DNA of 64,000 nucleotides from a virus (taxonomy: Duplodnaviria; Caudoviricetes). The DNA is taken from positions 64,001 to 128,000 of the IMG/VR virus record IMGVR_UViG_3300027804_000038. One strand, 5' to 3'. Shown one piece after another: positions 1,508-62,552 of the stretch. The notes below the pieces were generated by a model. That model saw only the letters and a list, made by a program, of their open reading frames with translations. It ran no database searches and was not told where the DNA came from. The position numbers were made by a program, and so were the translations under genes. Positions within the stretch are counted from its first letter, which is position 1; each line of letters begins with the position of its first letter.

Positions 1508-1514
1508 TATTTAT
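1508..1514 (+). promoter_or_regulatory. Putative late promoter TATTTAT
   Basis: 16 nt before ATG 1531. Confidence 0.55.
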
Positions 1515-1530
1515 AAAATAAAATTATAAA

Positions 1531-2241
1531 ATGAGATTTGGAGTAATAAAAACATTAATTGAAAACAAATTGGTTGAATCTTTTGTTAATAAAAGATTAT
1601 CAACCGACATGTCTTTTTTTCAAGACAAAATTTTAAAGGATAAATCATTTAAAAAACACATGTTTGTATATGATACTTTAAATGAAAATAAATCTTTAGA
1701 TTCTGAAACTGCAAATTATTTAATTGATGATTTAATTAACGATTTAAAAAATAATCCTTTGTCTGAAAATGTAATTAAAACAATAAAGAGATGGACAAAT
1801 GGAATAGTTAAAGAAAATAATTATTCTGTGATAGATAATTTGGTATACGGAGATGACTTACATCCTGAAAAAAAATCTATTGCTAGAAAACAAATAGTTG
1901 AATCGTTAGGAAAAAATAAGGTTATTAAAGAATCAAAAAGTAAAATACCTTTAAAGTCCATGGTTAAAATTGCAAACACAACAATTGCAAAAAAACTTGA
2001 GAATCTATCAGAATCTGATAAGGAAAAAATATTAAAGGTTTTAAAATCAGACGATGAAATTAAAGAAGAATTTAAAAAATTAAAAGAGGATACTCTAAAT
2101 AAAATTGATAGGTTAATTTCAGAATCACCTGAAGATTTGACACAAACATTGATTGAAACTAAAGAAAGATTAGGTAAATCAGATTTTTCAAAAAAAGAAT
2201 ATATTAAACTTATTAATTTAAATGACGGTTTAGTTCTCTAA
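1531..2241 (+). CDS. Hypothetical protein, positional analogue of T4 prohead core proteins (gp67/gp68)
   Basis: 236 aa ORF between portal and protease; many [ILV]-x-E sites (LIE, LVE, LNE, LSE, VKE, IVE, IKE) of the type cut by gp21-like proteases. Confidence 0.5.
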   Translation: MRFGVIKTLIENKLVESFVNKRLSTDMSFFQDKILKDKSFKKHMFVYDTLNENKSLDSETANYLIDDLINDLKNNPLSENVIKTIKRWTNGIVKENNYSVIDNLVYGDDLHPEKKSIARKQIVESLGKNKVIKESKSKIPLKSMVKIANTTIAKKLENLSESDKEKILKVLKSDDEIKEEFKKLKEDTLNKIDRLISESPEDLTQTLIETKERLGKSDFSKKEYIKLINLNDGLVL

Positions 2242-2415
2242 ATTCTTTTTTTCTTTATAGATTGCATTTTTTAAAGTCTGACGAGTTATGTCAGACTTTT
2301 TTTTATATGTTTTTCTATCTTGTAATTGCGATATTAATTTAGTTTTAATAACTTTTGATTTAAAAGATTTTAAGGCTTGCTCAATATTACCTTTTTTAAT
2401 TGGGACTATTAACAT
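2230..2415 (-). CDS. rpsU: Ribosomal protein bS21, Bacteroidetes-like
   Basis: 61 aa basic protein MLIVPIKKGNIEQALKSFKSKVIKTKLISQLQDRKTYKKKS...KNAIYKEK matches the bS21 pattern (MLIIPIK..ENIDRALK.YK.K..KTG...QLR.R..F.KPS...KAAY). Confidence 0.88.
   Translation of the reverse strand: MLIVPIKKGNIEQALKSFKSKVIKTKLISQLQDRKTYKKKSDITRQTLKNAIYKEKKNLEN
2273..2304 (+). terminator. Intrinsic terminator for portal-core transcript, lying inside the antisense rpsU CDS
   Basis: AAAGTCTGAC-gagttat-GTCAGACTTT perfect 10 bp stem followed by further Ts. Confidence 0.7.
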
Positions 2416-2416
2416 T

Positions 2417-2447
2417 TTGACAAATGGAATTTTATGTGTTAAATTTA
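2417..2447 (+). promoter_or_regulatory. Putative early/host-RNAP promoter (Bacteroidetes-type TTG-N20-TAnnTTTN)
   Basis: TTGACA at 2417, TAAATTTA at 2440-2447, upstream of 2483 ORF. Confidence 0.55.
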
Positions 2448-2454
2448 TTAAACA

Positions 2455-2461
2455 ATAAATA
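2455..2461 (-). promoter_or_regulatory. Putative late promoter TATTTAT for rpsU
   Basis: 39 nt before ATG 2415. Confidence 0.4.
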
Positions 2462-2482
2462 AAAAGAAATCATGCAAAGTTA

Positions 2483-2932
2483 ATGAAGAAAGGTAAATCT
2501 TGTATTTTAAATGGATACAAAAATTTAAAATGTAATTATGGAACAGTAGATGCTAAAAATCTAAAATCAATTTATATAAACATTCAGTCTTGGGTCGAAC
2601 CAGTCAAGTTTTTTGAGAATTGGGATAAGCCCGTATCAAATCTATCAAAAATAATTAAACAATTACTAAATGAAATAGTGGATAAACTAATTTATGACAA
2701 TAAATTTATTGTTGATTTAGATTTAAGAACGAGCGGAATATCTTTAGGCAAAAGGTCTTTTATGAATTTAGAAATTACTTTGTTTATTAAAAACCCTATA
2801 GATTTTAAATCTATGATTTTAAGAAAAAGTGTCAAAGACATTGTAAGTTCGATACAGAAAGAAATTTTAAATAACTCAAATTATTTTATTTTTCATCTTA
2901 CAAAGACTGACAAAATTGTAAAAAGCGAATAA
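2483..2932 (+). CDS. Hypothetical protein
   Basis: 149 aa intact ORF with own putative promoter. Confidence 0.75.
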   Translation: MKKGKSCILNGYKNLKCNYGTVDAKNLKSIYINIQSWVEPVKFFENWDKPVSNLSKIIKQLLNEIVDKLIYDNKFIVDLDLRTSGISLGKRSFMNLEITLFIKNPIDFKSMILRKSVKDIVSSIQKEILNNSNYFIFHLTKTDKIVKSE

Positions 2933-2938
2933 GTTTAA

Positions 2939-2945
2939 TATTTAT
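2939..2945 (+). promoter_or_regulatory. Putative late promoter TATTTAT
   Basis: 15 nt before protease ATG. Confidence 0.6.
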
Positions 2946-2960: not shown

Positions 2961-3680
2961 ATGCAAAATTTTAAAATACTTGGTCCTAATGAAATCGGTA
3001 AGGGTATTCTTATTGAATACGATGCGGGATACGTATCCCCTAAAGAATTTTCTAATGATAAAATTATAAAAGAAAATTTAAACACTACCGATTATTCAAA
3101 ACCTTTTGAATTTTATGCCGTACTCCAAAAGTATGACACACCAAATAGAAATGGTAGAATATACCCCGAAAGAATTCTAAAAAGAGAGTCAGAGAATTAT
3201 ATAAAAAATTATATTAATAGAGGGACTTCTCTATCGGAATTAAACCACCCTGAATCTTCATTAATTGATTTAGATAGAGTTTCACACATCATAACTGAAA
3301 TGTGGTGGGATAAAAATGTTTTACTAGGTAAACTTAGACTTTTAACTTCTCCAGGATTCCATGAAAGAGGAATTGTCTCAACTAAAGGAGACCAAGCCGC
3401 TAATTTACTAAGACAAGGAGTAACACTAGGTATATCATCAAGAGGTGTAGGTTCTTTAAAAAAGAAAGGAGAACAAAATGAAGTTCAAGATGATTTTGAA
3501 TTAATTTGTTTTGATTTAGTATCTTCCCCATCAACACCTGGAGCATATCTTTTTAAAGATGAAAAGGATAGATATAAGTACGAGGAAAATTTAAAAGAAG
3601 AAAATGAATTAAAAGCTCAAAGAGGTATTGGGGATTCTATTGATTTAATGAAAAAACTTTCCGATTATTTATCAAAATAA
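2961..3680 (+). CDS. Prohead core protein protease (T4 gp21-like, S77/U9)
   Basis: Motifs NRNGRIYP, SLSELNHPE (His), GISSRGVGS (Ser), DDFELICFDLVSSPSTPGAY. Confidence 0.95.
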   Translation: MQNFKILGPNEIGKGILIEYDAGYVSPKEFSNDKIIKENLNTTDYSKPFEFYAVLQKYDTPNRNGRIYPERILKRESENYIKNYINRGTSLSELNHPESSLIDLDRVSHIITEMWWDKNVLLGKLRLLTSPGFHERGIVSTKGDQAANLLRQGVTLGISSRGVGSLKKKGEQNEVQDDFELICFDLVSSPSTPGAYLFKDEKDRYKYEENLKEENELKAQRGIGDSIDLMKKLSDYLSK

Positions 3681-3686: not shown

Positions 3687-3896
3687 ATGGATGAAAAATA
3701 TTTTGTAGCAAAAATTACAATTGATGACGTTGATTCGGAATCAGGAAAAATCAAAAAACAAAAAGAAGAAAAATTAGTTAAAGGATATAGCCCAACTGAT
3801 GTCGAGGCTAAGGTTACTAAAGTTTTTGAAAGTTACTCACAAGACTGGAGAATTACAGCAATCGTTGAGAGTAAGATTGATGAAGTAATAGAATAA
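3687..3896 (+). CDS. Hypothetical protein
   Basis: 69 aa ORF 6 nt after protease, followed by terminator. Confidence 0.7.
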   Translation: MDEKYFVAKITIDDVDSESGKIKKQKEEKLVKGYSPTDVEAKVTKVFESYSQDWRITAIVESKIDEVIE

Positions 3897-3985: not shown

Positions 3986-3992
3986 TATTTAT
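3986..3992 (+). promoter_or_regulatory. Putative late promoter TATTTAT (scaffold-capsid operon)
   Basis: 14 nt before ATG 4007, just after terminator. Confidence 0.65.
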
Positions 3993-4006: not shown

Positions 4007-5461
4007 ATGGCAGAAAAAAATTTAGTTGAAGAAACTCTAATCCAAATCCAAAATTTGGAGGAAGTTATCAATGAAAACGCAAAAGAAATACTTGCTTCAA
4101 CCATGAAGGAAGAAATTAGCGAATTAGTAAAAGAGTCTATGAAACAAGATGAGACTGACAAAGAATCTGAGTTTACCGAAGAAATGACTGAGGCAGACGA
4201 AGAGGATGAAACAGAAGAAATTGAAATGGATTTTGACACTGAGGAAGATTCAGATGAATCTGAAGAATTGGAAGATTCTGAAGATGAAATGGAAATGGAC
4301 TTAGATATGGATGATGAAATGGAAATGGATTCTGATTTAGAAGATGAAACAGATGTGATTGATTTAACATCAGCTTCTGACGAAGAAATTCTAAAAGTAT
4401 TTAAATCTATGTCTGCTGAAGATGAAATTACTGTTACTAAAGACGGTGACTACATTCATTTAACTGACGAAGATGACGAGTACTTGATTCAAACCGAAGG
4501 AGAGCTTGAAACCGAGCTTGAAGAAGGTTGGGAATCTGAAGAAGAACAAGAATTAGAAGAATCTGATGAGGAATTAGAAGAAACTATTTATGAGATTTCT
4601 TTTGACGATTTTGAAGATTTTGATTCTGAAGAAGAATATGATTTTAAGAAAGATTTAGAAGATTTTGATGAGAAATCTGAGTTTTATTCTGAAATGGAAG
4701 AATCTACATCTATTCATGAGAAGTATGACCATAAGAAAGGTTCAAAAAGTGTTAAACCAAAAGTTGGTAAAGGAGCTAAAACAGGTTCTGCGTCTAAATT
4801 CTCTTATAAAAATAACAAAGGAGGATTTAAAGAAGAAATGCCAAAGGCTGACCCTACCAAATTTGCAGGTAAAGTTAAAAAATTCGAGTTTAAAGAAACA
4901 GATTTAAGTGCAGCATCTGAAAAAGAAGCTAAGGCATTTGCATCTAAGAAAAGTGAGACTAAAGAAGCATCTCGTACATATGGAATGGGATGGAGAAAAG
5001 ACGCACTACCTAAAGGTGCAAGAGCTGGTTCTAAACAAGCTAGAATGAGAACTGAGTCTGTTATTGATGAGGTTGAAATGTTAAGGTCTAAAAATGAAGA
5101 ATACAGAAAGGCACTTAATTTATTCCGTGAAAAATTGAATGAAGTAGCGGTTTTCAATTCAAACTTGGCATATGCAACTCGATTATTTACTGAACACTCA
5201 ACATCTAAACAAGAAAAAATTAACATCTTGAGAAGATTTGATTCTGCTGAAACACTTAAAGAATCTAAAGCATTATACAAAACAATAAAAGATGAACTTT
5301 TATCTGATAATACTGTGACAAAATCAATCAATGAATCAATTGAAAGAGTAATTGAACGTGAACCACAATCAGGTTCGGCAATTAATCTAATTGAATCTAA
5401 GACGTATGAAAACCCTCAGTTTTTAAGAATGAAAGACATCATGGCAAAAATTGCCAAATAA
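4007..5461 (+). CDS. Prohead core scaffolding protein (T4 gp22-like)
   Basis: 484 aa, extremely acidic middle, C-terminal coiled coil (LNEVAVFNSNLAYATRLF...ILRRFD), immediately upstream of capsid gene. Confidence 0.8.
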   Translation: MAEKNLVEETLIQIQNLEEVINENAKEILASTMKEEISELVKESMKQDETDKESEFTEEMTEADEEDETEEIEMDFDTEEDSDESEELEDSEDEMEMDLDMDDEMEMDSDLEDETDVIDLTSASDEEILKVFKSMSAEDEITVTKDGDYIHLTDEDDEYLIQTEGELETELEEGWESEEEQELEESDEELEETIYEISFDDFEDFDSEEEYDFKKDLEDFDEKSEFYSEMEESTSIHEKYDHKKGSKSVKPKVGKGAKTGSASKFSYKNNKGGFKEEMPKADPTKFAGKVKKFEFKETDLSAASEKEAKAFASKKSETKEASRTYGMGWRKDALPKGARAGSKQARMRTESVIDEVEMLRSKNEEYRKALNLFREKLNEVAVFNSNLAYATRLFTEHSTSKQEKINILRRFDSAETLKESKALYKTIKDELLSDNTVTKSINESIERVIEREPQSGSAINLIESKTYENPQFLRMKDIMAKIAK

Positions 5462-5497
5462 AAAAAATAAATAATAAAATAAAAACCAAAAAATAAA

Positions 5498-7327
5498 ATG
5501 GGAGCATTATTAGAATCAGGTCTTGTTGGTAACATTGGTCTTAAGCACCTTAAAGTTATCAAAGAAGATACTATTAACAAATGGGACAAATTAGGGTTCC
5601 TTGAAGGTCTTCGTGGCCACCTAAAAGAAAACGTAGCTCAGTTGTATGAAAACCAAGCTTCGCACTTAATAAACGAATCAACTTCAACTGCGGACTCAGG
5701 TTCGTTTGAAACCGTTGTATTCCCAATCATTCGTCGTGTATTCTCTAAGCTTTTGGCTAACGAGATTGTATCTGTACAGGCTATGAACTTACCTGTTGGT
5801 AAATTGTTCTACTTTGTACCACGTATCCAAGGATGGACAGGTGCAACTCCAGCAGTTGCTAATGGAAATCAAAATGGTCACTACGCACCATTCGGTTCAC
5901 CAAACGGTCCTGCATCAGTTAACGCTGGTTATGGTACAGACACAGGAGCTATCGCTAAGAACACTTACGATTTGTTCTATGAAGGTACTGAACCATCATT
6001 AGACCCACCAGGATTGTTTGACTACTCAAAAGGTCGTTATTCTTGGTTGTCTGCAGCAACTAACACTGTTGTTTGGAATACATCTGGTAATTTACAAGTT
6101 TCAGGATACGGTTCTGGCGAATATCGTAAGATATTGGTTGCAATGTCAGGTTTCTCTAACTCAGGTGCTGGTAAGATTATTGGTCCTGATGGACAAGAAA
6201 TGGATACTGAATCTTTCTTATCAGATTTAACAATCCTTCCAACTCAAGCATCTATCGGAGGATTAACATTCTCTACTACCACTCCATTATTATTCCGTGT
6301 AGTAACACAGAAATATGGACAAGGAATGGTACAGTACGGTTCATCAACAACAACTACTTGGCCAACTAACGGTAATGGTGGTACTTATTTTGATATTTGT
6401 ACACCAAACGGAGTTATCTATTTAGAAATTGATTTACAAGTACCTGCATGTATCGCTTGTGGTCAATCTACACCTGATGGATATAGTGGACTTACTTTCA
6501 CTTCTGCAGTATCTGCTACAACTGCTAGTAACCCATTCACGGCTTACTTTAAGCGTTATGAAGAATTAGAATTCGAAGACAGAATTGGTGAAGTTTCTTT
6601 TGATTTAGAATCAGTAACTGTTTCTGTGACTGAAAGAAAGTTAAGAGCACAATGGTCACCAGAACTTGCACAGGACGTTGCGGCATTCCACAACATTGAC
6701 GCTGAAGCTGAATTAACAGCTTTATTGTCTGAACAAGTGGCTGCTGAAATCGACCGTGAAATCTTACGTGACTTACGTAAAGGTGCAGCTTGGACATTAC
6801 GTTGGGATTACAACGGATGGAAGCGTCTGAATAACCAAGCAACTCCGTATACTCAAAAGGACTGGAATCAAACTCTTATCACTGCGATTAACCAAATCTC
6901 AGCTCAAATCCACAAGTCAACTCTTCGTGGTGGAGCTAACTGGATTGTAGTATCTTCTGAAATCTCTGCGATTTTCGATGACTTACAATACTTCCACGTT
7001 TCTAACGCAGCACCTGAGCAAGACCAGTACAACATGGGTATTGAGAGAATCGGTACATTGGCAGGTCGTTACCAAGTATATCGTGACCCATACTTCCCAC
7101 CAAACACTGTGTTGTTAGGTCACAAAGGTACATCGTTACTTGATACTGGTTACATCTACGCACCATACGTACCATTACAATTAACTCCAACAATGTACAA
7201 CCCATTCAACTTCACACCTATCAAAGGTATCATGACACGTTACGCTAAGAAGATGGTTAACAACCGTTTCTTCGGACGTATCATCGTTGATGGTGTTCGT
7301 ACGTTTGATTTGAGAGAATTGAGATAA
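5498..7327 (+). CDS. Major capsid protein (T4 gp23-like) with large internal insertion
   Basis: Motifs VSVQAMNLP.GKLFY, ERKLRAQWSPELAQD..AFHNIDAEAELT..LSEQ.AAEIDREI, GYIYAPYVPL, KGIMTRYA; high-expression codon bias (cgt, aac, ttc, atc). Confidence 0.97.
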   Translation: MGALLESGLVGNIGLKHLKVIKEDTINKWDKLGFLEGLRGHLKENVAQLYENQASHLINESTSTADSGSFETVVFPIIRRVFSKLLANEIVSVQAMNLPVGKLFYFVPRIQGWTGATPAVANGNQNGHYAPFGSPNGPASVNAGYGTDTGAIAKNTYDLFYEGTEPSLDPPGLFDYSKGRYSWLSAATNTVVWNTSGNLQVSGYGSGEYRKILVAMSGFSNSGAGKIIGPDGQEMDTESFLSDLTILPTQASIGGLTFSTTTPLLFRVVTQKYGQGMVQYGSSTTTTWPTNGNGGTYFDICTPNGVIYLEIDLQVPACIACGQSTPDGYSGLTFTSAVSATTASNPFTAYFKRYEELEFEDRIGEVSFDLESVTVSVTERKLRAQWSPELAQDVAAFHNIDAEAELTALLSEQVAAEIDREILRDLRKGAAWTLRWDYNGWKRLNNQATPYTQKDWNQTLITAINQISAQIHKSTLRGGANWIVVSSEISAIFDDLQYFHVSNAAPEQDQYNMGIERIGTLAGRYQVYRDPYFPPNTVLLGHKGTSLLDTGYIYAPYVPLQLTPTMYNPFNFTPIKGIMTRYAKKMVNNRFFGRIIVDGVRTFDLRELR

Positions 7328-7641: not shown

Positions 7642-7648
7642 TATTTAT
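7642..7648 (+). promoter_or_regulatory. Putative late promoter TATTTAT
   Basis: 17 nt before ATG 7666. Confidence 0.55.
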
Positions 7649-7665: not shown

Positions 7666-8313
7666 ATGTCTAAAAAGAAACTAAATAGTATTAATGATAT
7701 TGTTGAATCATTATTTTTAAAAGAAACTACAAATACTAATGTAAGTTCAGGTATATATAATGCACCTATAGAGATAGAAGATAAAGAATGGGATGAACAT
7801 ATATTATCACCATTTATTAATAAATCTAACCATTATCATAATAATAAAGTTAAAGATAAGGAGTTAGGTGATAAAATCAAATTTAAACACGGTTATATTG
7901 AGAAAGATAACCCAAACAAAGGGAAATCAAAAAGGTTAATTACACCTGTAAATGAAAGTGAAACTAATGAAGATTTGGCGGTTTGGTTTGGTAAAAAAAA
8001 GAAACCAAAGGGAAGTAAACAGCCTAAGGGTCCATGGGTTAATATTTGTCGTAAGAAAGATGGTAAACATCCTCCTTGTGGTAGACCTGAATCATCCGAT
8101 AAGGGGTACCCAAAATGCAGAGCTGCGGGGGTTGCTGGAAAAATGTCTGACTCTCAAAAAAGAGCGGCATGTCAACAAAAAAGAAAGGCTGAAAAAAAAG
8201 ATACCCAAACAGGTAAAGGACAAAAACCTGTTATGACTTCGTATAAACCAAAAAATAAAAAAAGTAAGAACGAATCAGTTTTGATTAGTCTAATAAGAAA
8301 AGTTTTAAAATGA
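7666..8313 (+). CDS. Basic Cys-containing conserved viral protein (WF..K..WVNI..PCGR..YPKCR motif)
   Basis: C-terminal half DLAVWFGKKK...GPWVNICRKKDGKHPPCGRPE...YPKCRAAG, very Lys-rich; late motif upstream. Confidence 0.6.
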   Translation: MSKKKLNSINDIVESLFLKETTNTNVSSGIYNAPIEIEDKEWDEHILSPFINKSNHYHNNKVKDKELGDKIKFKHGYIEKDNPNKGKSKRLITPVNESETNEDLAVWFGKKKKPKGSKQPKGPWVNICRKKDGKHPPCGRPESSDKGYPKCRAAGVAGKMSDSQKRAACQQKRKAEKKDTQTGKGQKPVMTSYKPKNKKSKNESVLISLIRKVLK

Positions 8314-8702: not shown

Positions 8703-9104
8703 TTATATACAAATTTTTGAATAAATAGTCTCCAATGAATGTTTAATTTGAACATCTAACTCTTTTTCCATCTTTAAAGCTCTATCATCCATTTCTTTTT
8801 TAAAGTATTCTTTAAGTTTTTGCCAATATAAATCAGGTAATTTTATAAAGTAACTATATGTATGATTGGTAATTGTTATCTCCCCTTCCTCCATGGTAAT
8901 AAAAATACCAAACTCTTCGTTTTTGATATATTTTTTTCCAGAAATTGGTGCAATTAACAATTCTGAATTTGGGTTATGAATCAATTTTCTACATATTGCC
9001 GAACATTGATTAATCCTGGTTCTTTGGATTTTTCTAATCTCAGTTTGAGTTAGACTTCTTACAAAAAGTTTGTATTTGGCAATTATTCTTCTAAAGAATG
9101 ACAT
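8703..9104 (-). CDS. Hypothetical protein
   Basis: 133 aa ORF with Bacteroidetes-type promoter upstream. Confidence 0.7.
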   Translation of the reverse strand: MSFFRRIIAKYKLFVRSLTQTEIRKIQRTRINQCSAICRKLIHNPNSELLIAPISGKKYIKNEEFGIFITMEEGEITITNHTYSYFIKLPDLYWQKLKEYFKKEMDDRALKMEKELDVQIKHSLETIYSKICI

Positions 9105-9118: not shown

Positions 9119-9149
9119 CAAATATACGTCTAAATCTTTAATCTAACAA
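9119..9149 (-). promoter_or_regulatory. Putative early/host-RNAP promoter, full Bacteroidetes consensus
   Basis: Minus strand TTG(9149-9147)-N20-TATATTTG(9126-9119), 14 nt before ATG at 9104. Confidence 0.65.
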
Positions 9150-9614
9150 TAATTTTAAAAAATTTTCCCAAGTTTCCACATCATTATCGTTTCTACCAAT
9201 ATTTGCAGAATAGCAACAAAGAACAACATTGTCTCTTGTGTAACCTTTAGTCCTATCTAATCTATCTAATGATGGTTGCTGAGGGTGTTTTGGTTTATTA
9301 GATGATATTAGTGGTACATTAAACCAATAACACAAACCATTTTGACTATCGAACATCTCATTAATATCATCAACAGTTAAAGTATGTTCTTTATTCCTTT
9401 TAGTGTCGTTGATTAAAGTATTTTGCCATAACCTAACTCTTCTTTCCTTTTGTTTTAAGCTTTCATTTTTTTTAAAATCAGGGTTTAATCTGTAATTTTT
9501 TTTGTACTCTCTGGTAACTTTCAGAATACATTCTTTACATTTACTACCCCTTTGGGATACGTAAAAATCATTTTCGCTTTTAATCACACCGCATTTACTA
9601 CATTGTTTTTCCAT
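9138..9614 (-). CDS. Free-standing HNH-like (His-Me finger) endonuclease
   Basis: N-terminal CxxC...CxxC; C-terminal GLCYW...PSLDRLDRTKGYTRDNVVLCCYSANIGR typical of phage HNH homing-type nucleases. Confidence 0.75.
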   Translation of the reverse strand: MEKQCSKCGVIKSENDFYVSQRGSKCKECILKVTREYKKNYRLNPDFKKNESLKQKERRVRLWQNTLINDTKRNKEHTLTVDDINEMFDSQNGLCYWFNVPLISSNKPKHPQQPSLDRLDRTKGYTRDNVVLCCYSANIGRNDNDVETWENFLKLLLD

Positions 9615-9618: not shown

Positions 9619-9625
9619 ATAAATA
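9619..9625 (-). promoter_or_regulatory. Putative late promoter TATTTAT for HNH gene
   Basis: 4 nt before ATG 9614. Confidence 0.5.
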
Positions 9626-9671: not shown

Positions 9672-10199
9672 TTAACAGAATGGTGGTGAACACCTTTTCT
9701 TACCGTCAAGACCTTTTATTTTACCTTTACACACTTGGACAGCGTGACCATTACTATATGCTGAGGGGTACACGTCATACTTCGCCTTTGCCGATGCCTT
9801 ACCTCTAGCACATAATTTTGTTCCAGTTTTTTTACGACCTTCATTCATCTGATATAGTGCTAAAGCGTCATCAGGGTTTTTTAAAGTCATAGCTAAATCG
9901 TCAACAACATTATCATTTTCCATCATTTCACCATCACTAATATTCATGGACAATTCCATACCGTCTTTTTTTGTTTCATTCATCATAAAATCAAAAACTT
10001 GGTCTAAATTATTTTTTGCTTCAGCAATATGGTCCTGAGCCCAATCATGACCATTATCTAAAATAGAATCAACCATGTCTCTTTCTAAGTCTAACAATAA
10101 ATCACATTGTCTTCTCATTTGTTCTAAATTTGAAAAGAACATATATCTATCTGATTGCTCTTTAATAACTTTTCTAATTATATTATCTATATTTCTCAT
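9672..10199 (-). CDS. Hypothetical protein with C-terminal AK.KY.VYPSAY.NG motif
   Basis: KLCARGKASAKAKYDVYPSAYSNGHAVQVCKG at C-terminus; acidic N-terminal region. Confidence 0.6.
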   Translation of the reverse strand: MRNIDNIIRKVIKEQSDRYMFFSNLEQMRRQCDLLLDLERDMVDSILDNGHDWAQDHIAEAKNNLDQVFDFMMNETKKDGMELSMNISDGEMMENDNVVDDLAMTLKNPDDALALYQMNEGRKKTGTKLCARGKASAKAKYDVYPSAYSNGHAVQVCKGKIKGLDGKKRCSPPFC

Positions 10200-10204: not shown

Positions 10205-10211
10205 ATAAATA
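10205..10211 (-). promoter_or_regulatory. Putative late promoter TATTTAT
   Basis: 5 nt before ATG 10199. Confidence 0.5.
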
Positions 10212-10213: not shown

Positions 10214-10717
10214 TTAAAAAGCAACATTTCCCTTTAATTCTTCACAAACATTATCTAAAAAGTTCTCAATCTCATGTTCTAACCCTTCATATGTCTCAAA
10301 CAAATTAATGCCTTCAGGGTCTTCAAAATTACATGTTGAGTAAGTCCCGTTTGGTTCACAATATATTTCCCCATAAAATTCATCATTATTTACGGTTAAA
10401 TAACCAGTGTGAACCATTTCGTTAGGATTATCTTCAGTAGATTCGTATTTAAAAGACATATTAACACCCCCAATTATATCAGAAAAAATATTTTCATAAT
10501 TGGTAACTTGTGAACGTGTAACTAATTCTTCATCATCTTTAAATTTACCAGTTTCGGAATAATGTATTAAATATTTCTTTTCTTTATCTGTTAAACCCTC
10601 AAATCCTACTCTATTTATTTTATCTAAAATAGAGTCAATTTTATCCATACTTTCATTAATAATATTATTAATTATTTTGATTAATTCCGATTCTGTTATT
10701 TGTATTTTTTTTCTCAT
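10214..10717 (-). CDS. Hypothetical protein, candidate internal head protein
   Basis: N-terminus MRKKIQITESELIKIINNIINES with I-x-E sites; acidic body. Confidence 0.6.
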   Translation of the reverse strand: MRKKIQITESELIKIINNIINESMDKIDSILDKINRVGFEGLTDKEKKYLIHYSETGKFKDDEELVTRSQVTNYENIFSDIIGGVNMSFKYESTEDNPNEMVHTGYLTVNNDEFYGEIYCEPNGTYSTCNFEDPEGINLFETYEGLEHEIENFLDNVCEELKGNVAF

Positions 10718-12216
10718 TTTTTGTTAACTATTTGAAATTTAATTTGTCTTTTATAGGTTTCTGACGACCCATTTGATATGACCTTTAAGTCAATATAATA
10801 TTCATTAGGTATTTTGTCAGTAGTATCAAATATAAAATAAAATTGATTATCTGACCTATTTATTTCAGTCCAATCTTGTACTTGAACTTCAGTTTGGCCC
10901 TCTCTAACATATAGTCTATAATAAGCGTTTACATTAGACAATATCTCATTTGTACTATATGCTTTTTTAACTATAACGCCAACTTTTCTAATATCTGTAT
11001 TTAATATTTTTTCGTCTTGTTTAATACCATAAAAATCGAACCCATACAATATTGGGTCTTGACTCATTGTTGATATTTGTAAAGTATTATTATATGGTAA
11101 AAGTATTATAGTATTTGTTATATTACTTAGACTATTTCCATTGTATATTAAATTACTCCAAACGTCATATATCGTACATGGTACGTTTGTGTTACCTGTA
11201 ATTGCGGGTATTGTTACTTCATAAATCCCTTTTGATATTAGACAAGACGTTAGAGGTCCTTGTATAATACTATCTTCAGAGTCAATTATATTAACAGTTG
11301 GTGGGGTGTCTAAATTAACTAAATCACCGTCAATATATGAAAATAAATAAAGTTTATTTTCATTATTTGTCACAAAATAATTTCGATTATCTTTAATTAA
11401 ATCATTATATGATGTCTCTAAAAATGGTTCATAAAATGTTTGAGTATGCCTACTAAAAAAGGCAACTGCGTAATTTTCAGTCAACCCTGTTAAATTTTCA
11501 AGTTCAGGTGAAAAAGATATAATCCATCCCGTGTTACCAGTAGTACCACCACTTAAAATTGAGTTTATTTCATCCGTCATATCAAACTCAATATCTTCAT
11601 TACCAAATTCAAAGTGTTGAGTATCAACAATAGTTAACCCACTATAATTTACATTACCTGAATTTGTATTTGAATATATCCCATTTTGACTCCATCCTGA
11701 TATAGTTGTTGTTTGATACCAATTAGAGGGTCTCTGAGAGTAACTTTTATTTTCAGGTAGTAATATTGGAGTTATAAGTCCATTTGAAAAATTAGTTGTA
11801 TTTTGTACATCATAATAATCAGAACCTACTCCTTCATCCCAATATTGTGGATTACCAGTTGAACCCGAAATTTTAGGTATTCTGATTAAATGTAAATCAA
11901 AAGAAGTTGCTCTTAACCTCCCGTCTGACATTGAGGTATTAAGTAACTCAGTATCAAATGAAGAAGTGTTAGTCATTCTAAGTTTGTGAGTTATTCCACT
12001 AAATCCTGTACATCCTGTTGAAATAACTCCTGATGAAAATTTACTAACTAACTCGGTTAAATCTAAATCAAAAATAAACCTTGAGAAACCTTTTTGTGAT
12101 AGTACGTCATTTGCGGTACCAAAATACAATTCAGTATAAGGAGCCTTACCAGTATTTGTAAAACTATTATACAATAATGTATTATTTCTAGAAAAATATG
12201 AACGATGTATTGACAT
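10714..12216 (-). CDS. Putative virion structural protein (Ser/Thr/Gly-rich, beta-rich)
   Basis: Start moved to ATG 12216 (MSIHRSY), 13 nt after late motif; 8 [ST]GxT motifs; follows spike gene. Confidence 0.6.
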   Translation of the reverse strand: MSIHRSYFSRNNTLLYNSFTNTGKAPYTELYFGTANDVLSQKGFSRFIFDLDLTELVSKFSSGVISTGCTGFSGITHKLRMTNTSSFDTELLNTSMSDGRLRATSFDLHLIRIPKISGSTGNPQYWDEGVGSDYYDVQNTTNFSNGLITPILLPENKSYSQRPSNWYQTTTISGWSQNGIYSNTNSGNVNYSGLTIVDTQHFEFGNEDIEFDMTDEINSILSGGTTGNTGWIISFSPELENLTGLTENYAVAFFSRHTQTFYEPFLETSYNDLIKDNRNYFVTNNENKLYLFSYIDGDLVNLDTPPTVNIIDSEDSIIQGPLTSCLISKGIYEVTIPAITGNTNVPCTIYDVWSNLIYNGNSLSNITNTIILLPYNNTLQISTMSQDPILYGFDFYGIKQDEKILNTDIRKVGVIVKKAYSTNEILSNVNAYYRLYVREGQTEVQVQDWTEINRSDNQFYFIFDTTDKIPNEYYIDLKVISNGSSETYKRQIKFQIVNKK

Positions 12217-12229
12217 TATCTTTTTATAG

Positions 12230-46269: not shown

Positions 46270-46274
46270 GTAAT

Positions 46275-52058: not shown

Positions 52059-52065
52059 ATAAATA
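52059..52065 (-). promoter_or_regulatory. Putative late promoter TATTTAT (neck gp13-like)
   Basis: 17 nt before ATG 52041. Confidence 0.6.
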
Positions 52066-52788: not shown

Positions 52789-52793
52789 CAATA

Positions 52794-52800
52794 ATAAATA
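52794..52800 (-). promoter_or_regulatory. Putative late promoter TATTTAT for SOD
   Basis: 5 nt before ATG 52788. Confidence 0.55.
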
Positions 52801-54560: not shown

Positions 54561-54591
54561 TAAATATAATTCATAATTAGATATTTATCAA
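54561..54591 (-). promoter_or_regulatory. Putative early promoter of helicase, overlapping the divergent late motif
   Basis: Minus strand TTGATA...TTG-N20-TATATTTA, 13 nt before ATG 54547. Confidence 0.55.
54582..54588 (+). promoter_or_regulatory. Putative late promoter TATTTAT (gp14-like operon)
   Basis: 4 nt before ATG 54593. Confidence 0.6.
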
Positions 54592-54592: not shown

Positions 54593-55108
54593 ATGAGTCA
54601 AAGAAATGTACCTATAACAAGATTAAGTAAATTTTTTGGTGCCGAAGATTTTAGTTTGGACGTTGGTATGGGTAGGGAATGGTTAGAAGGTGATATGAAT
54701 TTTACTTTAGTATTATATTCAGTGGATAAAACTAAAACAAATATTGATGATGTATATGGAGAAGCCTTACAAGATGGGATTAAATTTAAAACTCCTGTAG
54801 AATTTAAGGCATTTGTTCAGGTAATGGCCCCTGAGAATAAAAATGTAGGAACATCTAAATTAGATTTAATGGAACCTGGTAATATAAGAATATCAGTTTA
54901 TCAGTCTCACTTAGATGAATTAGGTATTGATATACAATATGGAGATTATATTGGATACTATGAAACAGAAAACAGAGTTAGATATTATACTGTAAATAAT
55001 GATGGTAGGGTTACTTCAGATAACAAACATACTTATGCTGGGTATAAGCCATTTTATAGAACTATAGTCGCATCTTTTGTAAACAATAATGAGTTTAGAG
55101 GTTTATAA
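54593..55108 (+). CDS. Neck/head-closure protein (T4 gp14-like)
   Basis: LY.VD..KT..DDVYGEA, GDYIGY; starts neck-gp15-sheath-tube block. Confidence 0.7.
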   Translation: MSQRNVPITRLSKFFGAEDFSLDVGMGREWLEGDMNFTLVLYSVDKTKTNIDDVYGEALQDGIKFKTPVEFKAFVQVMAPENKNVGTSKLDLMEPGNIRISVYQSHLDELGIDIQYGDYIGYYETENRVRYYTVNNDGRVTSDNKHTYAGYKPFYRTIVASFVNNNEFRGL

Positions 55109-56824: not shown

Positions 56825-56874
56825 ATAAATAGATGTGCCACACTAAAATTTTTGCGATTTTTTGCAATATTTAT
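56825..56874. promoter_or_regulatory. Divergent late promoters (RHH gene / sheath) with intervening TTTTTGCRA direct repeat
   Basis: ATAAATA 56825-56831 (35 nt before ATG 56789) and TATTTAT 56868-56874 (35 nt before ATG 56910). Confidence 0.55.
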
Positions 56875-56909: not shown

Positions 56910-59900
56910 ATGGCTACATCAAACAAAGTTTTTGTTTCTCCAGGTGTTTACACATCTGAAAGAGACTTATCATTTGTGGCACAAAGTGTTGGTGTAACAA
57001 CTTTAGGTATTGTTGGGGAGACACAAAAAGGACCCGCTTTTGAACCTATTTTTGTGACTAACTATGATGAGTTCCAATCGTATTTTGGAGGTACCTCACC
57101 TGAAAAATTTGTGAACACGCAAATACCTAAATATGAAGCGGCATATATTGCTAAATCATATTTACAACAATCTAACCAATTATTTGTAACAAGAATATTG
57201 GGGTTATCGGGATATGACGCTGGTCCGTCATGGTCTATTAAAACAATTGCGAATGTTGATTGTAATACAATAGGATTTAACGGTACTGCAACAACATCTT
57301 CATTTACTTTTACAGGAACAAGTGCGTCAACATCATCAATTACACTAACAAGTGTTCCATCCCCAATCTCATCTATTATTAATGATGTCTATACAGAATT
57401 TGATGGAGGAACTTCAAGTATTTCTGAGCAAATTCAAACTCAGTTATTGAATGTTATGAGGTCAACAGGTACTTCTGCAACTTCAATATACTACTTTGGA
57501 GCTATGTCAGGAGCGTCAATAACTGCGGCAATAGGGTCAGGATATACATCACCAACAAATGTTTATTCAGTATCCTCAATTACTGCAGAAACTATTGATT
57601 ACTGTTCAGGTTTAAATGACGCATGGTACTATTCACAGTTTAGTCCCGTTGGTACTACTTCATATTCAGGATTTTCGTTTAATACTTATGTCACTAAATT
57701 AGCTGCTTTAGGTACGCCAGGTCAATATTCAGGTATAGTAACAACTACTGTTAATACTTTTTCAGGTACCCCTTACACTAATTACAGTGATTTAGTAATT
57801 GCAACATTACGTTCAAGAGGTATTACTAATTACAGTTCAACACAATCAGGACCTTTATACCAAGTTAGTGCAACTTCGGCAGTTACTATGGTTTGTACAG
57901 GTTCTTATTCAGGAGTTAGTGAAAATCCGTTTAATACATTTGTAATTTCAGGTGTGACATACCAAGGTTCTAATTTCTCATTTGAGACTTCTTTTGAGAT
58001 TGCTAATTCTAATTATATTACTAAGGTATTTGGTTCAGGTAATTTTGATAAAGACAGAACAGAAGTTCCTTTGTTTGTTGAAGAGCGTTACCAAACCTTA
58101 TTACAATATGGTTATAATAAAGGATATATTAGAGGTTTAAGTTGTTCTTTAGAGTCTTTACCTGAAGCTAGAAACTTAGACACTTCATCAATAGCCAATT
58201 ATTTAGAAAGATATCAAACAGCATTCTCACCATGGGTAGTTTCAGAATTACGTGGTAATAAAGTTTATGAATTGTTTAGATTTGTAACAATATCTGACGG
58301 AGACGCTGCGAACAGAGAAGTTAAAGTTTCTTTAGCAAATATGTCATTTAATAACCAAACATTTGACGTAATAGTTAGAGATTATTATGATAACGACTCA
58401 AATCCTGTGGTACTTGAGAAATTCACTAACTGTACTATGGACCCTGATTTGAATAGTTATATAGCTAAAAAAATCGGTTCGACTGACGGTGAATACGCAA
58501 TACTTTCTAAGTATATAATGGTTGAAATGAACTATGATGCACCGATAGACGCACTTCCATGTGGTTTTGAAGGTTACATTATTAGAACTTATGGAGGAGC
58601 AACTTCACCATTCCCTGTATACAAAACTAAGTATGATTTCCCAGGTGAAGTAATTTATAACCCTCCATTTGGTAACACTAATGGTACTGACGATTCTGTT
58701 ACAAGTTCTGGAGATAATGTTAGAAGAACTTACTTAGGATTCTCAACTTCATTAGGGTTTGATTCTGACTTCTTTGAATATAAAGGTAAACAAGTTCCAA
58801 CTTCTTGGAGTTGTTCAGAACAAGATTACAGTAATTGGGGTGACTTAACTAAAGGTTTCCACATGGATAGTGGAGCAACTGCGGTTACGATATCTTCAAC
58901 ATACTCAACATCAGGTCAATCGGCCTTTGAAGTCGGAGATTCATCATTCTCTCAAGAACCAACAAGTTCAAGCGACCCATATTACAGACTTTATTCTCGT
59001 AAATTCACTGTGTGTGTTTACGGTGGTTTTGACGGATGGGATATCTATAGAGAATACAGAACAAATGAAGATAGATTCATCCTTGGTGAATCAGGATATT
59101 TAGCGGGAGCACAAGCAGGTTGTTCACCTTACACAAACGCAACTGGATGGGGGGCGTTTAAGAGAATCACTGTTGGTGATAACGTAGTTGATTGGGCAAA
59201 TACTGACTATTACGCTTACTTATTAGGTATTAGAAGTTTTGAAAATCCTGAAGTTACTAACATAAACGTTTTAGTTACTCCTGGTATTGACTTTGTTAAT
59301 AACTCAAACTTAACTGAGGCGACTATTGATATGGTTGAAAACGATAGAGCGGATTCAATCTATATTGTAACTAGTCCTGACTTTGACCTATACCAACCAT
59401 CAACTTCTATGGATAACTTAATCTATCCTCAAGAAGCGGTTGATAATTTAGAAACAACAGGTATAGATTCTAACTACACCGCAACTTACTATCCTTGGGT
59501 TCTTACTCGTGATACGGTTAATAACACTCAAATCTATATTCCAGCAACCGCAGAAGTTACAAGAAACTTGGCGTTAACTGACAATATTGCATTCCCTTGG
59601 TTCGCAACTGCGGGATACACAAGAGGTGTTGTAAACGCAATCAGAGCAAGAAAACGTTTAACTCAAGAAGATAGAGATACTCTATACAAAGGAAGAATTA
59701 ACCCGATTGCAACATTCAACGATGTTGGTACTGTAATATGGGGTAATAAAACACTTCAAATTAGAGAGTCGGCTCTTGATAGAATAAATGTTAGAAGATT
59801 GTTGTTACAAGCTCGTAAATTGATTTCAGCGGTGGCTGTAAGATTATTGTTTGAACAAAATGATAACGTAGTTAGACAACAATTTTTAGACTCAGTTAAT

Positions 59901-60089
59901 CCAATATTAGACGCTATTAGAAGAGATAGAGGATTATATGACTTTAGAGTTACCGTACAAAATACACCTGAAGATTTGGATAATAACCAATTAGTTGGTA
60001 AAATTTACATAAAACCAACAAAATCTTTAGAATTTATTGATATTGAATTCTTAATTACTCCTACAGGTGCTAGTTTTGAAGATATCTAA
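56910..60089 (+). CDS. Tail sheath protein (T4 gp18-like) with Ser/Thr-rich insertion
   Basis: SPGVYTSE.DLS, VGETQKGPAFEP, YYPWV, PWFATAGYTRG, RINPI, WGNKTL, LDRINVRRLL. Confidence 0.96.
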   Translation: MATSNKVFVSPGVYTSERDLSFVAQSVGVTTLGIVGETQKGPAFEPIFVTNYDEFQSYFGGTSPEKFVNTQIPKYEAAYIAKSYLQQSNQLFVTRILGLSGYDAGPSWSIKTIANVDCNTIGFNGTATTSSFTFTGTSASTSSITLTSVPSPISSIINDVYTEFDGGTSSISEQIQTQLLNVMRSTGTSATSIYYFGAMSGASITAAIGSGYTSPTNVYSVSSITAETIDYCSGLNDAWYYSQFSPVGTTSYSGFSFNTYVTKLAALGTPGQYSGIVTTTVNTFSGTPYTNYSDLVIATLRSRGITNYSSTQSGPLYQVSATSAVTMVCTGSYSGVSENPFNTFVISGVTYQGSNFSFETSFEIANSNYITKVFGSGNFDKDRTEVPLFVEERYQTLLQYGYNKGYIRGLSCSLESLPEARNLDTSSIANYLERYQTAFSPWVVSELRGNKVYELFRFVTISDGDAANREVKVSLANMSFNNQTFDVIVRDYYDNDSNPVVLEKFTNCTMDPDLNSYIAKKIGSTDGEYAILSKYIMVEMNYDAPIDALPCGFEGYIIRTYGGATSPFPVYKTKYDFPGEVIYNPPFGNTNGTDDSVTSSGDNVRRTYLGFSTSLGFDSDFFEYKGKQVPTSWSCSEQDYSNWGDLTKGFHMDSGATAVTISSTYSTSGQSAFEVGDSSFSQEPTSSSDPYYRLYSRKFTVCVYGGFDGWDIYREYRTNEDRFILGESGYLAGAQAGCSPYTNATGWGAFKRITVGDNVVDWANTDYYAYLLGIRSFENPEVTNINVLVTPGIDFVNNSNLTEATIDMVENDRADSIYIVTSPDFDLYQPSTSMDNLIYPQEAVDNLETTGIDSNYTATYYPWVLTRDTVNNTQIYIPATAEVTRNLALTDNIAFPWFATAGYTRGVVNAIRARKRLTQEDRDTLYKGRINPIATFNDVGTVIWGNKTLQIRESALDRINVRRLLLQARKLISAVAVRLLFEQNDNVVRQQFLDSVNPILDAIRRDRGLYDFRVTVQNTPEDLDNNQLVGKIYIKPTKSLEFIDIEFLITPTGASFEDI

Positions 60090-60974: not shown

Positions 60975-61048
60975 TAAATTTAACTGGTCTTAATGCAATA
61001 TTCATTTAAAAAAACTTCAAAGTAAATAGAAAAATTTTAAAACGATAC

Positions 61049-61055
61049 TATTTAT
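61049..61055 (+). promoter_or_regulatory. Putative late promoter TATTTAT (tail tube)
   Basis: 35 nt before ATG 61091. Confidence 0.55.
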
Positions 61056-61090
61056 ATAAAAAATAAAAGAGAAATTAAAAACAAAATAAT

Positions 61091-61579
61091 ATGGCTGATT
61101 TACTAATGAAAATGCCCATACCTTATGAACCAAAAAAACAAAACAGGTTTATTTTAAGGTTTCCTTCTGAACTTGGAATTAACGAGTGGTTTGTTGAGTC
61201 GGCATCAAGACCAAAAATTACCATCGCTTCTAATGCAATTCCTTTCTTGAACACTGAAAGATATGTTGCTGGTAAGTATACATGGAACACTATTTCAGTT
61301 ACTTTCCGCGACCCAATCGGTCCTTCAGCCGCTCAGGCACTTATGGAATGGGTTCGTTTACACGCTGAATCTGTAACAGGACGTATGGGTTACGCTGCGG
61401 GATACAAAAAAGACATTGATTTAGAAATGTTAGACCCAACAGGAGTTGTAGTTGAAAAATGGAAATTAATTGGTACTTTTTTAACTGATGTTGACTTTAG
61501 TTCAGTCGCTTATACATCCGATGATTTAGTTAAAATCACCGCAACATTAAGACCTGACTATTGCGTATTATTATACTAA
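61091..61579 (+). CDS. Tail tube protein (T4 gp19-like)
   Basis: RP.I...IPFLN..RYVAGK.TW..I.VTF.D, MLDPTG.VVEKW.L.G.F. Confidence 0.92.
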   Translation: MADLLMKMPIPYEPKKQNRFILRFPSELGINEWFVESASRPKITIASNAIPFLNTERYVAGKYTWNTISVTFRDPIGPSAAQALMEWVRLHAESVTGRMGYAAGYKKDIDLEMLDPTGVVVEKWKLIGTFLTDVDFSSVAYTSDDLVKITATLRPDYCVLLY

Positions 61580-61602
61580 TAATAAAATAAAATACTATTT
61601 AC

Positions 61603-61628
61603 AAATCCACACTTGTTGTGGATTTTTT
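61603..61628 (+). terminator. Intrinsic terminator after tail tube gene
   Basis: AAATCCACA-cttgt-TGTGGATTTTTT. Confidence 0.75.
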
Positions 61629-61643
61629 ATTTAAAATATAATT

Positions 61644-62396
61644 ATGAACGAAAATATTGCGGGACAAGATAATTTTAGTTTACCACATGATGTGGTATTG
61701 TTACCATCACAAGGTAAATTTTACAAAAATAAGAAAAAAAGTGTTAAAGTTGGTTTTTTGACTGCCTCTGATGAAAATTTGTTAGCTAACGTTGGTAAAA
61801 TTACAGGTGAACAGTTATTATCACAACTCATTAGAAATAAATTATATGAACCTGAATTAAATCCAAATGATTTACTTGAAGGTGATATTGAGGCGATTTT
61901 ATTATTTTTAAGAAATACTTCTTTTGGACCTGAATATAATTTTTCACTGACTGACCCAGAAACAGGTCAACCTTTTAAGACTTCTGTGGTATTAGATGAA
62001 TTAAATTTTATTAAATCAAAAATTGAACCTTCATCTGACGGAACATTTGAAACTAAGTTACCTAAAACTGGCTCTGTTATTAAATTAAAACCGCTAACTT
62101 ACGGTGAAAAAATAGAAATTGAAAAAATGGTTGATTCATATCCACAAGGTATGGTGGCTCCTAAAGTTACTTGGAGATTAATGAAACAAATCATTGAAGT
62201 AAACGGTGACCAATCTAAGGAAGTAATTTCCAAATTTATTGAATCTATGCCAATTATGGATTCAAAATACATTACAAACTTTTTAAGTGAGAATGAACCA
62301 AGAATTGATTTAATGAGAGAAATTACAGCCCCGTCAGGAAAAAAGGTTAATGCGAGAGTATCCTTTGGGGCGGAGTTTTTTCGTCCTTTCTTCTGA
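61644..62396 (+). CDS. Tail assembly chaperone / baseplate hub protein (T4 gp26-like)
   Basis: V.LPSQGKFY, LTASDENLL, LL.GD.EAIL.FLR..SFG, ends in FF; between tube and tape measure. Confidence 0.78.
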   Translation: MNENIAGQDNFSLPHDVVLLPSQGKFYKNKKKSVKVGFLTASDENLLANVGKITGEQLLSQLIRNKLYEPELNPNDLLEGDIEAILLFLRNTSFGPEYNFSLTDPETGQPFKTSVVLDELNFIKSKIEPSSDGTFETKLPKTGSVIKLKPLTYGEKIEIEKMVDSYPQGMVAPKVTWRLMKQIIEVNGDQSKEVISKFIESMPIMDSKYITNFLSENEPRIDLMREITAPSGKKVNARVSFGAEFFRPFF

Positions 62397-62544
62397 TTAT
62401 ATAGAAAATCTATTAGACCAATACTATCTTATGGGGAAATTTCTAAACACCTCATACTCTGATTTTTTAATTATACCAACATACCAAAGAAACTTTTTGG
62501 TTAATAAAATAATTGAAAGAAATACGCCAAAAACAGATAGTTAA
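62350..62544 (+). CDS. gp51-like chaperone C-terminal part, probably reached by +1 frameshift from the upstream gene
   Basis: LLDQYYLMGKFLNTSYSDFLIIPTYQRNFLV resembles gpT/gp51 chaperone tails; +1 frame overlap across TTT TTT C at 62376-62382. Confidence 0.6.
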   Translation: MREYPLGRSFFVLSSDYIENLLDQYYLMGKFLNTSYSDFLIIPTYQRNFLVNKIIERNTPKTDS

Positions 62545-62545
62545 T

Positions 62546-62552
62546 TATTTAT
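62546..62552 (+). promoter_or_regulatory. Putative late promoter TATTTAT (tape measure)
   Basis: 16 nt before ATG 62569. Confidence 0.55.

Follow-up and report, generated by a model that had tools for sequence, protein, structure and literature searches.

The stretch of DNA examined here (the window) comprises bases 64,001-128,000, or 64,000 nucleotides (nt), of one virus contig of 293,850 bp (G+C content, 30%; IMG/VR record IMGVR_UViG_3300027804_000038). Our subject is the heptamer TATTTAT, which lies ahead of many genes of this phage, and a divergent sigma factor, P0001 (16332-17084), that probably reads it. The window encodes T4-type morphogenesis proteins, namely, a portal protein (2-1507), a prohead protease (2961-3680), a gp23-type capsid protein (5498-7327), a tail sheath (56910-60089), a tail tube (61091-61579), and a baseplate hub, together with a family-B DNA polymerase, an SNF2 helicase, a superoxide dismutase, and an endonuclease VII. 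A bS21 gene (2230-2415) lies on the reverse strand within the head module, which is the layout of the freshwater Bacteroidota bS21 phages (PMC9723584). The sequence ahead of start codons is A-rich and lacks a Shine-Dalgarno motif, and the only cultured phages with a homologue of P0001 infect Flavobacterium. The phage is a giant lake phage of Flavobacteria-like hosts. A megablast search of 25 kb against phage records gave no match.

TATTTAT boxes ahead of genes

Copies of TATTTAT in the window were concentrated ahead of genes, with 22 of them lying in gene-sense orientation upstream of open reading frames (ORFs) of at least 50 amino acids. They are listed below by the gap, in nucleotides, between the box and the ATG.

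Gap of 4-6 nt (predicted leaderless class)
9619-9625, - strand: TATTTAT, gap 4; endonuclease VII-like gene 9138-9614; gap 4 kept in 6 of 7 orthologues
10205-10211, - strand: TATTTAT, gap 5; gene 9672-10199
16310-16316, - strand: TATTTAT, gap 4; small gene 15943-16305 (P0271), directly downstream of the sigma gene
39061-39067, + strand: TATTTAT, gap 6 to ATG 39074, the likely true start of 39050-41200; back to back with the 39042 copy
46263-46269, + strand: TATTTAT, gap 5 to ATG 46275, the likely true start of ORF 46251-46655
46385, + strand: TATTTAT, a doubtful member of this class
52794-52800, - strand: TATTTAT, gap 5 to ATG 52788; Fe/Mn superoxide dismutase gene 52081-52788 (Pfam E value, 1e-40)
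54582-54588, + strand: TATTTAT, gap 4; gene 54593-55108, divergent from the SNF2 helicase gene
Gap of 13-17 nt
1508-1514, + strand: TATTTAT, gap 16; gene 1531-2241, directly after the portal gene
2939-2945, + strand: TATTTAT, gap 15; prohead protease gene 2961-3680
3666-3672, + strand: TATTTAT, gap 14; gene 3687-3896; box inside the 3' end of the protease gene
3986-3992, + strand: TATTTAT, gap 14; gene 4007-5461, ahead of the capsid gene; a terminator hairpin ends 41 nt upstream
7642-7648, + strand: TATTTAT, gap 17; gene 7666-8313
12230-12236, - strand: TATTTAT, gap 13 to ATG 12216, the likely true start of ORF 10714-12240
39042-39048, - strand: TATTTAT, gap 14; gene 38200-39027, first of a long leftward block
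52059-52065, - strand: TATTTAT, gap 17; gene 50920-52041, weak match to a head-tail adaptor family
62546-62552, + strand: TATTTAT, gap 16; gene from 62569 onwards
Gap of 28-39 nt
2455-2461, - strand: TATTTAT, gap 39; phage bS21 gene 2230-2415
27885-27891, - strand: TATTTAT, gap 28; gene 26834-27856; inside the upstream gene of a tight operon, a doubtful member
41205-41211, + strand: TATTTAT, gap 28; glycosyltransferase gene 41240-42484
56868-56874, + strand: TATTTAT, gap 35; tail sheath gene 56910-60089
61049-61055, + strand: TATTTAT, gap 35; tail tube gene 61091-61579

A first-pass annotation, made from the sequence alone, had counted 21 gene-sense copies, 8, 8, and 5 in the three spacing classes. 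Our recount agreed closely, with seven firm members and one doubtful member at 4-6 nt, nine members at 13-17 nt, and five at 28-39 nt. As that annotation had also stated, the box stands before structural genes: it precedes head, tail, and lysis-type genes and bS21. The claim that it is absent from the large operon did not hold, because the copy at 39042-39048 lies 14 nt before the first gene of the leftward block. The positions of the boxes point to ATG 12216, 39074, 46275, and 52788 as true starts, and the starts of the longest ORFs, 10714-12240(-), 39050-41200(+), 46251-46655(+), and 52081-52791(-) (TTG, ATG, GTG, and TTG, respectively), are probably wrong; for ATG 12216, conservation in orthologues adds to this (see below).

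The word itself was not abundant. In both strands of the window, it occurred 47 times, fewer than the 67.6 copies expected from whole-window shuffles. In the 45 nt before 73 window starts, however, 20 sense copies were found versus 2.96 ± 1.68 expected, along with 8 antisense copies; the null consisted of 2000 dinucleotide shuffles of the same 45-nt stretches, with a shuffle maximum of 9. For the whole genome, the 45-nt upstream stretches held 97 sense copies versus 35 antisense copies, with 21.3 ± 4.5 expected under a second-order model. The positional comparison with shuffled sequence that the first-pass annotation had suggested thus gave a clear enrichment at both scales. TATTTAT was the commonest 7-mer upstream of genes genome-wide, about a quarter of the phage genes had it in front, and 110 of the 274 genome copies were sense copies within 60 nt of a start. 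Only the exact word behaved in this way: it was 13.7-fold enriched upstream of genes, and each of the 21 one-mismatch variants was enriched at most 3-fold. The usual extended form was aTATTTAT followed by A, T, or C, with G nearly absent as the eighth base.

Several observations bear on whether the box is a signal in DNA. Within genes, TATTTAT was depleted about 2-fold relative to codon shuffles, both in sense (69 versus 134.7 ± 11.0) and in antisense (52 versus 99.9 ± 9.8), and the variants TATTTTT and AATTTAT were at expectation. Avoidance on the antisense strand is expected of a signal that is read in DNA. At 14 of the 93 genes with a box, a terminator hairpin (G+C-rich with a T-run) was located close by, its end lying anywhere from 1 nt within the box to 41 nt upstream. 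At six of these 14 genes the gap from the box to the ATG was only 4-5 nt, so that there is no room for another promoter element between the terminator and the gene. The box was carried by 32 of the 77 first genes of strand blocks, and for genes inside tight operons (12237, 14045, and 17084) it was found in none of the 72-79 orthologues. Upstream of TATTTAT, TTG reached at most 5% at any offset, compared with 39% at 19-20 nt (the Bacteroidota -33 element) for the host-type TAnnTTTG boxes of the same genome. Neither TTG nor any other sequence formed a peak upstream of the TATTTAT sites of the genome, and the spacers upstream of the box varied freely in relatives. Together, these features suggest that TATTTAT is a strand-specific, single-element, -10-like promoter distinct from the host type. 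A third promoter motif sought among upstream regions without a box was rejected: the top word, TTTATTAA, was mostly TATTTAT plus TAA.

The box was conserved in relatives, which were sampled as 80 loci around the sigma gene (sigma identity, 59-78%). In 73 of 78 loci, the gene that follows the sigma gene had TATTTAT 4-6 nt ahead of its ATG, and three exceptions had TATTTAC or TATTTAA at that site; the spacer from the sigma stop codon to the next gene ranged from 0 to about 35 nt and was otherwise unalignable. Orthologues of the 10714 gene had a box 10-17 nt upstream in 73 of 79 cases, and this conservation moves the start of the window gene to ATG 12216. In a contig whose sigma is 33% identical, the same neighbor gene and two others were preceded by AACTATTTA, followed by A, C, or T, at the following positions.

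1130-1184, 10760-10807, and 14800-14845 of that contig: AACTATTTA-type boxes

In another contig, with a 30%-identical sigma, the box was TATTTAT. Judging from these sequences, the promoter word may co-vary with the sigma.

A more distant comparison was provided by the cultured Flavobacterium phage vB_FspM_immuto (NC_055915.1; complete genome, 160,410 bp). It encodes a full-length homologue of P0001 (24% identity over residues 20-237; pairwise E value, 2e-10) followed by a small gene. TATTTAT stands before that small gene and, at a gap of 4, before a gene of the baseplate region; a tail-spike gene and many large genes between 117 and 154 kb have it in front as well. The small early-type genes of immuto carry a quite different, highly repeated box, TATATTTAGGTATCAATAATTAAAAC. 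Between 9500 and 18100, about 20 small genes each have a near-identical 26-nt TATATTTAGGTATCAATAATTAAAAC roughly 28 nt before the ATG, probably an early promoter plus leader.

Two gene fronts in the window call for separate mention. Ahead of the capsid gene, 5440-5497 holds a short hairpin (TGGCA-loop-TGCCA) and a long A-rich tract, and RNA-library contigs bridge the capsid gene to its upstream gene. The DNA polymerase gene is preceded by AAATTTAT (window 47640-47656), a one-mismatch variant with a gap of 3 nt to the ATG; this may be a chance occurrence, since the variant is not enriched genome-wide. AATTTAT, the word seen before the polymerase gene, was rejected as a promoter motif because it had no orientation bias (23 versus 23).

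Predicted start sites in two promoter classes

The genome-wide distribution of gaps between TATTTAT and the ATG was bimodal, with peaks at 4-7 nt (32 sites) and 13-17 nt (34 sites). The commonest gap was 4 nt, at 11 sites in the genome and in 57 of 89 cases in relatives. Host-type TAnnTTTG boxes, 41-50 of which lie upstream of genes in this genome, fell into the same two spacing classes. Their gap was exactly 4 nt at nine genes in this genome and 15 in relatives; in this genome, none had a gap of 0-3 or 6-7 nt, one each had a gap of 5 and 8 nt, and a second cluster lay at 13-17 nt. Examples are as follows.

9119-9126, - strand: host-type -7 box TATATTTG, 14 nt before 8703-9104; window example of this class
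7333, 13690, 30815, 45296, 225454, 232425, 235439, 245985, and 277500 of the genome, e.g.: host-type boxes at gap 4; genes predicted to be leaderless

The sigma-A box of Flavobacterium psychrophilum lies at -12 to -5 (PMC9723704), and with a gap of 4 nt this geometry would place +1 on the A of the ATG. The commonest TATTTAT gap, also 4 nt, likewise would put the last T of the box at about -5, as for the host -7 box. The first-pass annotation had assumed a T4-like start spacing. This assumption had to be abandoned: the T4 geometry (-13 to -6) would place +1 on the G of the ATG at gap 4, so the box must end at about -5. A start on an A located 5-6 nt after the box would agree with three more observations. 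In the 13-17-nt class, positions 6-8 after the box were 85-92% A; a pyrimidine stood at -1 in 34 of 43 leaderless candidates versus 183 of 345 other genes (Fisher P = 0.001); and the start codon was ATG in 42 of the 43 candidates. A -10-type element placed for +1 on the ATG, with a gap of 4-7 nt, was present at 32-33 genes. The leaders implied by these positions would measure 0-3 nt or about 9-13 nt in both promoter classes. For comparison, the median 5' untranslated regions (UTRs) published for the host phylum are 24-32 nt, leaderless mRNAs amount to 5.5% in F. psychrophilum, and 3.7% of the 5' UTRs of Bacteroides thetaiotaomicron are shorter than 10 nt (PMC9723704, PMC7366714).

The earlier proposal that the 4-6-nt class gives leaderless transcripts therefore stood in part. 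The gap leaves no room for a leader, but the arrangement is special neither to the motif nor to late genes, as host-type boxes also lie at exactly 4 nt. Because the spacing is the same in both classes, the predicted leaderless initiation would be a trait of how the genes of this phage are organized and not of TATTTAT alone. RNA runs with parts of the stretch came from three freshwater metatranscriptomes, in the form of assembled contigs from which starts, ends, and strands cannot be read. These contigs cover the capsid region and bridge 4559-5517 and give no evidence either way on transcript starts.

P0001 and other candidate readers of the box

The main protein candidates for reading the box, or for assisting in its reading, are encoded next to each other.

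16332-17084, - strand: P0001, divergent sigma factor of 250 aa with a sigma domain 2 and a C-terminal helical domain; candidate box reader
15943-16305, - strand: P0271, 120 aa; invariably next after the sigma gene, the distant cultured phage included

Neither protein was assigned to a family in Pfam, PHROGs, or NCBIfam. P0001 is nevertheless very widespread (7,893 matches in one search; 1,035 clusters at the 50% level). It matched Pfam Sigma70_r2 with an E value of 0.03, which does not reach the family cutoff. A 50-member P0001 profile matched region 2 of cyanobacterial SigA (E value, 0.007) and T4 gp55 (7d7c_F; E value, 0.95) at matching positions, and BLASTP aligned P0001 with T4 gp55 over 38 residues (E value, 3e-4). 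An AlphaFold model of P0001 had a predicted local distance difference test score of 88, and its top 50 Foldseek matches were all sigma factors. Residues 25-130 superposed on sigma domain 2 (Z score, 8.7-9.5; root mean square deviation, 2.5-3.1 Å; 93-98 residues), and whole-chain alignments extended through sigma region 4. The C-terminal 100 residues form four or five helices. Aligned alone, this domain resembled sigma-H, SigA region 4, and sigma-E region 4 weakly (Z score, 4.3-5.1), among unrelated helical proteins, and when it was folded alone, no sigma was found in the Foldseek top 50. Based on the modeled fold of domain 2, we take P0001 to be a sigma-70-family protein. The first-pass annotation had called it gp55-like. 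The sigma assignment is borne out by domain 2 (Z score of about 9; E value of 0.007 to SigA), but the gp55 match is marginal, and the gp55 label is not justified because gp55 has no such second domain of about 100 residues.

P0271 and its orthologues have a basic N terminus (M-x-[RK]-P, several K/R, and then EI) and an acidic C terminus. P0271 gave no known fold; the ESM Atlas returned unnamed viral clusters only, and tblastn against phage records gave no match. It is possibly a transcription cofactor. The C termini of the polymerase, the sigma, and P0271 share no motif like the T4 gp43/gp55 tails. Searches of the phage genome with the T4 gp55 protein, and with the T4 gp45 protein and PF02916, gave no match, but divergent proteins are easily missed by such searches; gp33 was not searched for. 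A phage-encoded multisubunit polymerase was dropped as a box reader because the RNA polymerase beta domain PF00562 is absent from the genome. Outside the window, at genome positions 191,312-192,130(+), lies a gene for a second, canonical RpoD/RpoS-like sigma, with regions 1.2, 2, and 4 at E values of 1e-16 to 1e-17 and an NCBIfam RpoD/RpoS match at about 1e-52. It follows a DUF6576 gene and stands behind a textbook host-type promoter (TTTG and then TAGTTTTG).

The reading that we consider probable is that a promoter class specific to the phage is recognized through TATTTAT alone, most likely by P0001, and that part of the resulting mRNAs would be leaderless. The phage sigma, most likely the divergent sigma-70-family protein of 16332-17084, would direct the host core RNA polymerase to TATTTAT as a -10-like element ending at about -5, and transcription would start on an A about 5-6 nt downstream of the box. 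At gaps of 4-7 nt, +1 would be the A of the start codon or lie within 1-3 nt of it, giving a leaderless or nearly leaderless mRNA; at gaps of 13-17 nt, an A-rich leader of about 9-12 nt would result. This class would drive head, tail, and lysis-type genes, bS21, and many genes of unassigned function, probably as a late, or middle plus late, program, and host-type TTG/TAnnTTTG promoters would drive other genes, including the second sigma. The late timing is suggested by the gene functions (head, tail, tail spike, peptidase, and bS21) and by the published finding that bS21 is transcribed together with structural genes in metatranscriptomes of this phage group (PMC9723584). Any link between the box or its leaderless class and bS21 is speculation on our part.

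Three other explanations were weighed. That the box is a chance or compositional product of AT-rich intergenic DNA has next to no probability. The genome has only 30% G+C and its intergenic DNA is still richer in A and T, but the enrichment reached z values of 16.7 genome-wide and 10 in the window against composition-preserving nulls, and the orientation bias, the sharp spacing peaks, the conservation at orthologous sites, and the lack of enrichment of one-mismatch variants all refute an artifact. We consider it improbable that the box acts in RNA, as a ribosome-recruiting or mRNA-processing element in the 5' UTR (e.g., via ribosomes with phage bS21) of transcripts that start further upstream. 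The 4-7-nt gap does resemble Shine-Dalgarno spacing, the hosts do not use Shine-Dalgarno sequences while the phage encodes bS21, and upstream transcript starts are compatible with the contig-only RNA data. Gaps of 13-17 and 28-39 nt, however, do not fit a ribosome-binding site, and host-type promoter boxes fall into the same spacing classes. Moreover, an RNA signal does not require avoidance of the antisense word within genes, terminators end 1-2 nt ahead of some boxes, and the need for an exact match is unlike A/U-rich translation enhancers.

The more serious rival, although we still judge it rather unlikely, accepts a TATTTAT promoter but assigns it to another factor, either the RpoD/RpoS-like sigma or a retargeted host sigma-A, leaving some other role to P0001. 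The second sigma has all the canonical regions, is present in the three most complete relatives, and lies behind a host-type promoter, as expected of an early gene. In addition, T1, A2, T5, and T7 of the box recur in the host TAnnTTTG, and the box apparently ends at the same position (-5). Opposed to this, TATTTAT sites lack the -33 TTG of host-type boxes, and the G that is typical of the eighth position in host boxes is nearly absent. Immuto is the main reason for preferring P0001: neither region 2 nor region 4 of Pfam sigma-70 matched its genome at E values up to 10, and it keeps only the P0001 homologue, yet it uses TATTTAT before structural genes. The first-pass proposal that the box is the -10 element of the 16332 sigma thus holds insofar as the box is promoter-like, strand-specific, and single-element; its reading by that particular sigma is still a matter of inference.

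A P0001-read, late-type promoter has to be set against several points. The canonical second sigma is present not only in this genome but also in the relatives mentioned. The likeness of P0001 to gp55 is marginal, its C-terminal domain does not clearly qualify as a sigma domain 4, and its binding to RNA polymerase and DNA is predicted. The gp23-type capsid gene lacks its own box; it may be cotranscribed from the 3986 box, or its mRNA may be processed. A purely late role fits poorly with the boxes before the superoxide dismutase, endonuclease VII, and glycosyltransferase genes and before dozens of small genes of unassigned function, which lie at 0-40 kb, and the first gene of the leftward operon (39042) is also boxed. 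Gaps of 5-7 nt would leave a leader of 1-3 nt unless the choice of the start site is flexible. Finally, both promoter function and the +1 position are deduced from sequence, as the RNA runs that hold this phage are available as assembled contigs only.

Comparison with known systems

Phage sigma-directed, single-element late-type promoters are a kind already known. More tentatively, we propose as new that widespread freshwater and marine Bacteroidota phages might run their late program through an undescribed two-domain sigma family reading a 7-bp box that ends at -5, with systematic leaderless or ~10-nt-leader mRNAs from both promoter types, possibly favored by bS21. Full-text literature searches found no paper naming a TATTTAT box in phages or dealing with late promoters or leaderless mRNAs in Flavobacterium phages, and we found no published work on the organization of transcription in bS21 jumbo phages. 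These phages are abundant in lakes, and for the sigma alone, public data contain more than 7,800 near relatives. With a defined box, late genes and operon starts could be predicted for hundreds of uncultured genomes, start codons could be corrected (four in the window), and genetic tools for Flavobacteria would gain new parts. Should the leaderless class prove real, about a third of the predicted transcription units bypass the usual 5' UTR, which is rare in the phylum, and start-codon choice by Bacteroidota ribosomes, with or without phage bS21, becomes directly testable.

The phage belongs to the same group as the bS21 freshwater Bacteroidota phages, which likewise have a reverse-strand bS21 gene in the head module, genomes of up to 331 kb, and a lake habitat (PMC9723584); in a word search, that paper proved not to mention promoters, sigma factors, motifs, or leaderless mRNAs. 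Bacteroidota sigma-A promoters consist of TTTG at -33 and TAnnTTTG at -12 to -5 (PMC9723704, PMC7366714). TATTTAT has the same apparent 3' boundary at -5 and agrees with TAnnTTTG at four of its six specified positions (T, A, T, and T), and the sigma-A-type promoters of this phage show the same two leader-length classes. Unlike them, TATTTAT has A instead of T at position 6, almost never G as the eighth base, and no -33 TTG, and it requires the exact 7-mer; both classes occur side by side in the genome, each with its own genes. Leaderless mRNAs are known from lambda cI transcribed from PRM (PMC10491246) and from many genes in Actinobacteria, Deinococcus, and archaea (PMC3160421). As in those cases, a -10-type element lies a fixed few bases before the start codon, which is almost exclusively ATG. 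Such mRNAs are rare in the host phylum, whereas here they are predicted from about a third of the promoters, in two classes.

A further parallel is with T4, whose late promoters carry TATAAATA at -13 to -6 and are recognized by gp55 together with gp33 and the gp45 clamp (PMC2988020). In both systems there is one -10-type element, very strict and made up of A and T only, without a -35 element, and it stands before structural genes, in a phage with T4-type head, sheath, and tube genes and a divergent sigma with a domain-2 core. As the first-pass annotation had noted, the box differs from the T4 consensus in the center, namely, at two positions of the gene-sense sequence, and, read with A as the eighth base, it is the reverse complement of the T4 box. 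The gene-sense word of this phage is TATTTAT and not TATAAATA, with its 97 sense versus 35 antisense copies, and a gap of 4 nt to the ATG is incompatible with a box that ends at -6 or -7. The box must also end about 2 nt nearer to +1 than in T4, and a third of the predicted promoters of this phage abut the start codon. T4 gp55 is a protein of about 185 aa with domain 2 only and a clamp-binding tail, whereas P0001 has 250 aa, an extra C-terminal domain, and a tail unlike that of gp55. According to the T4 review (PMC2988020), no fused late sigma had been found; the two-domain sigma described here may represent the "fused" late sigma, whose absence Geiduschek and Kassavetis remarked on.

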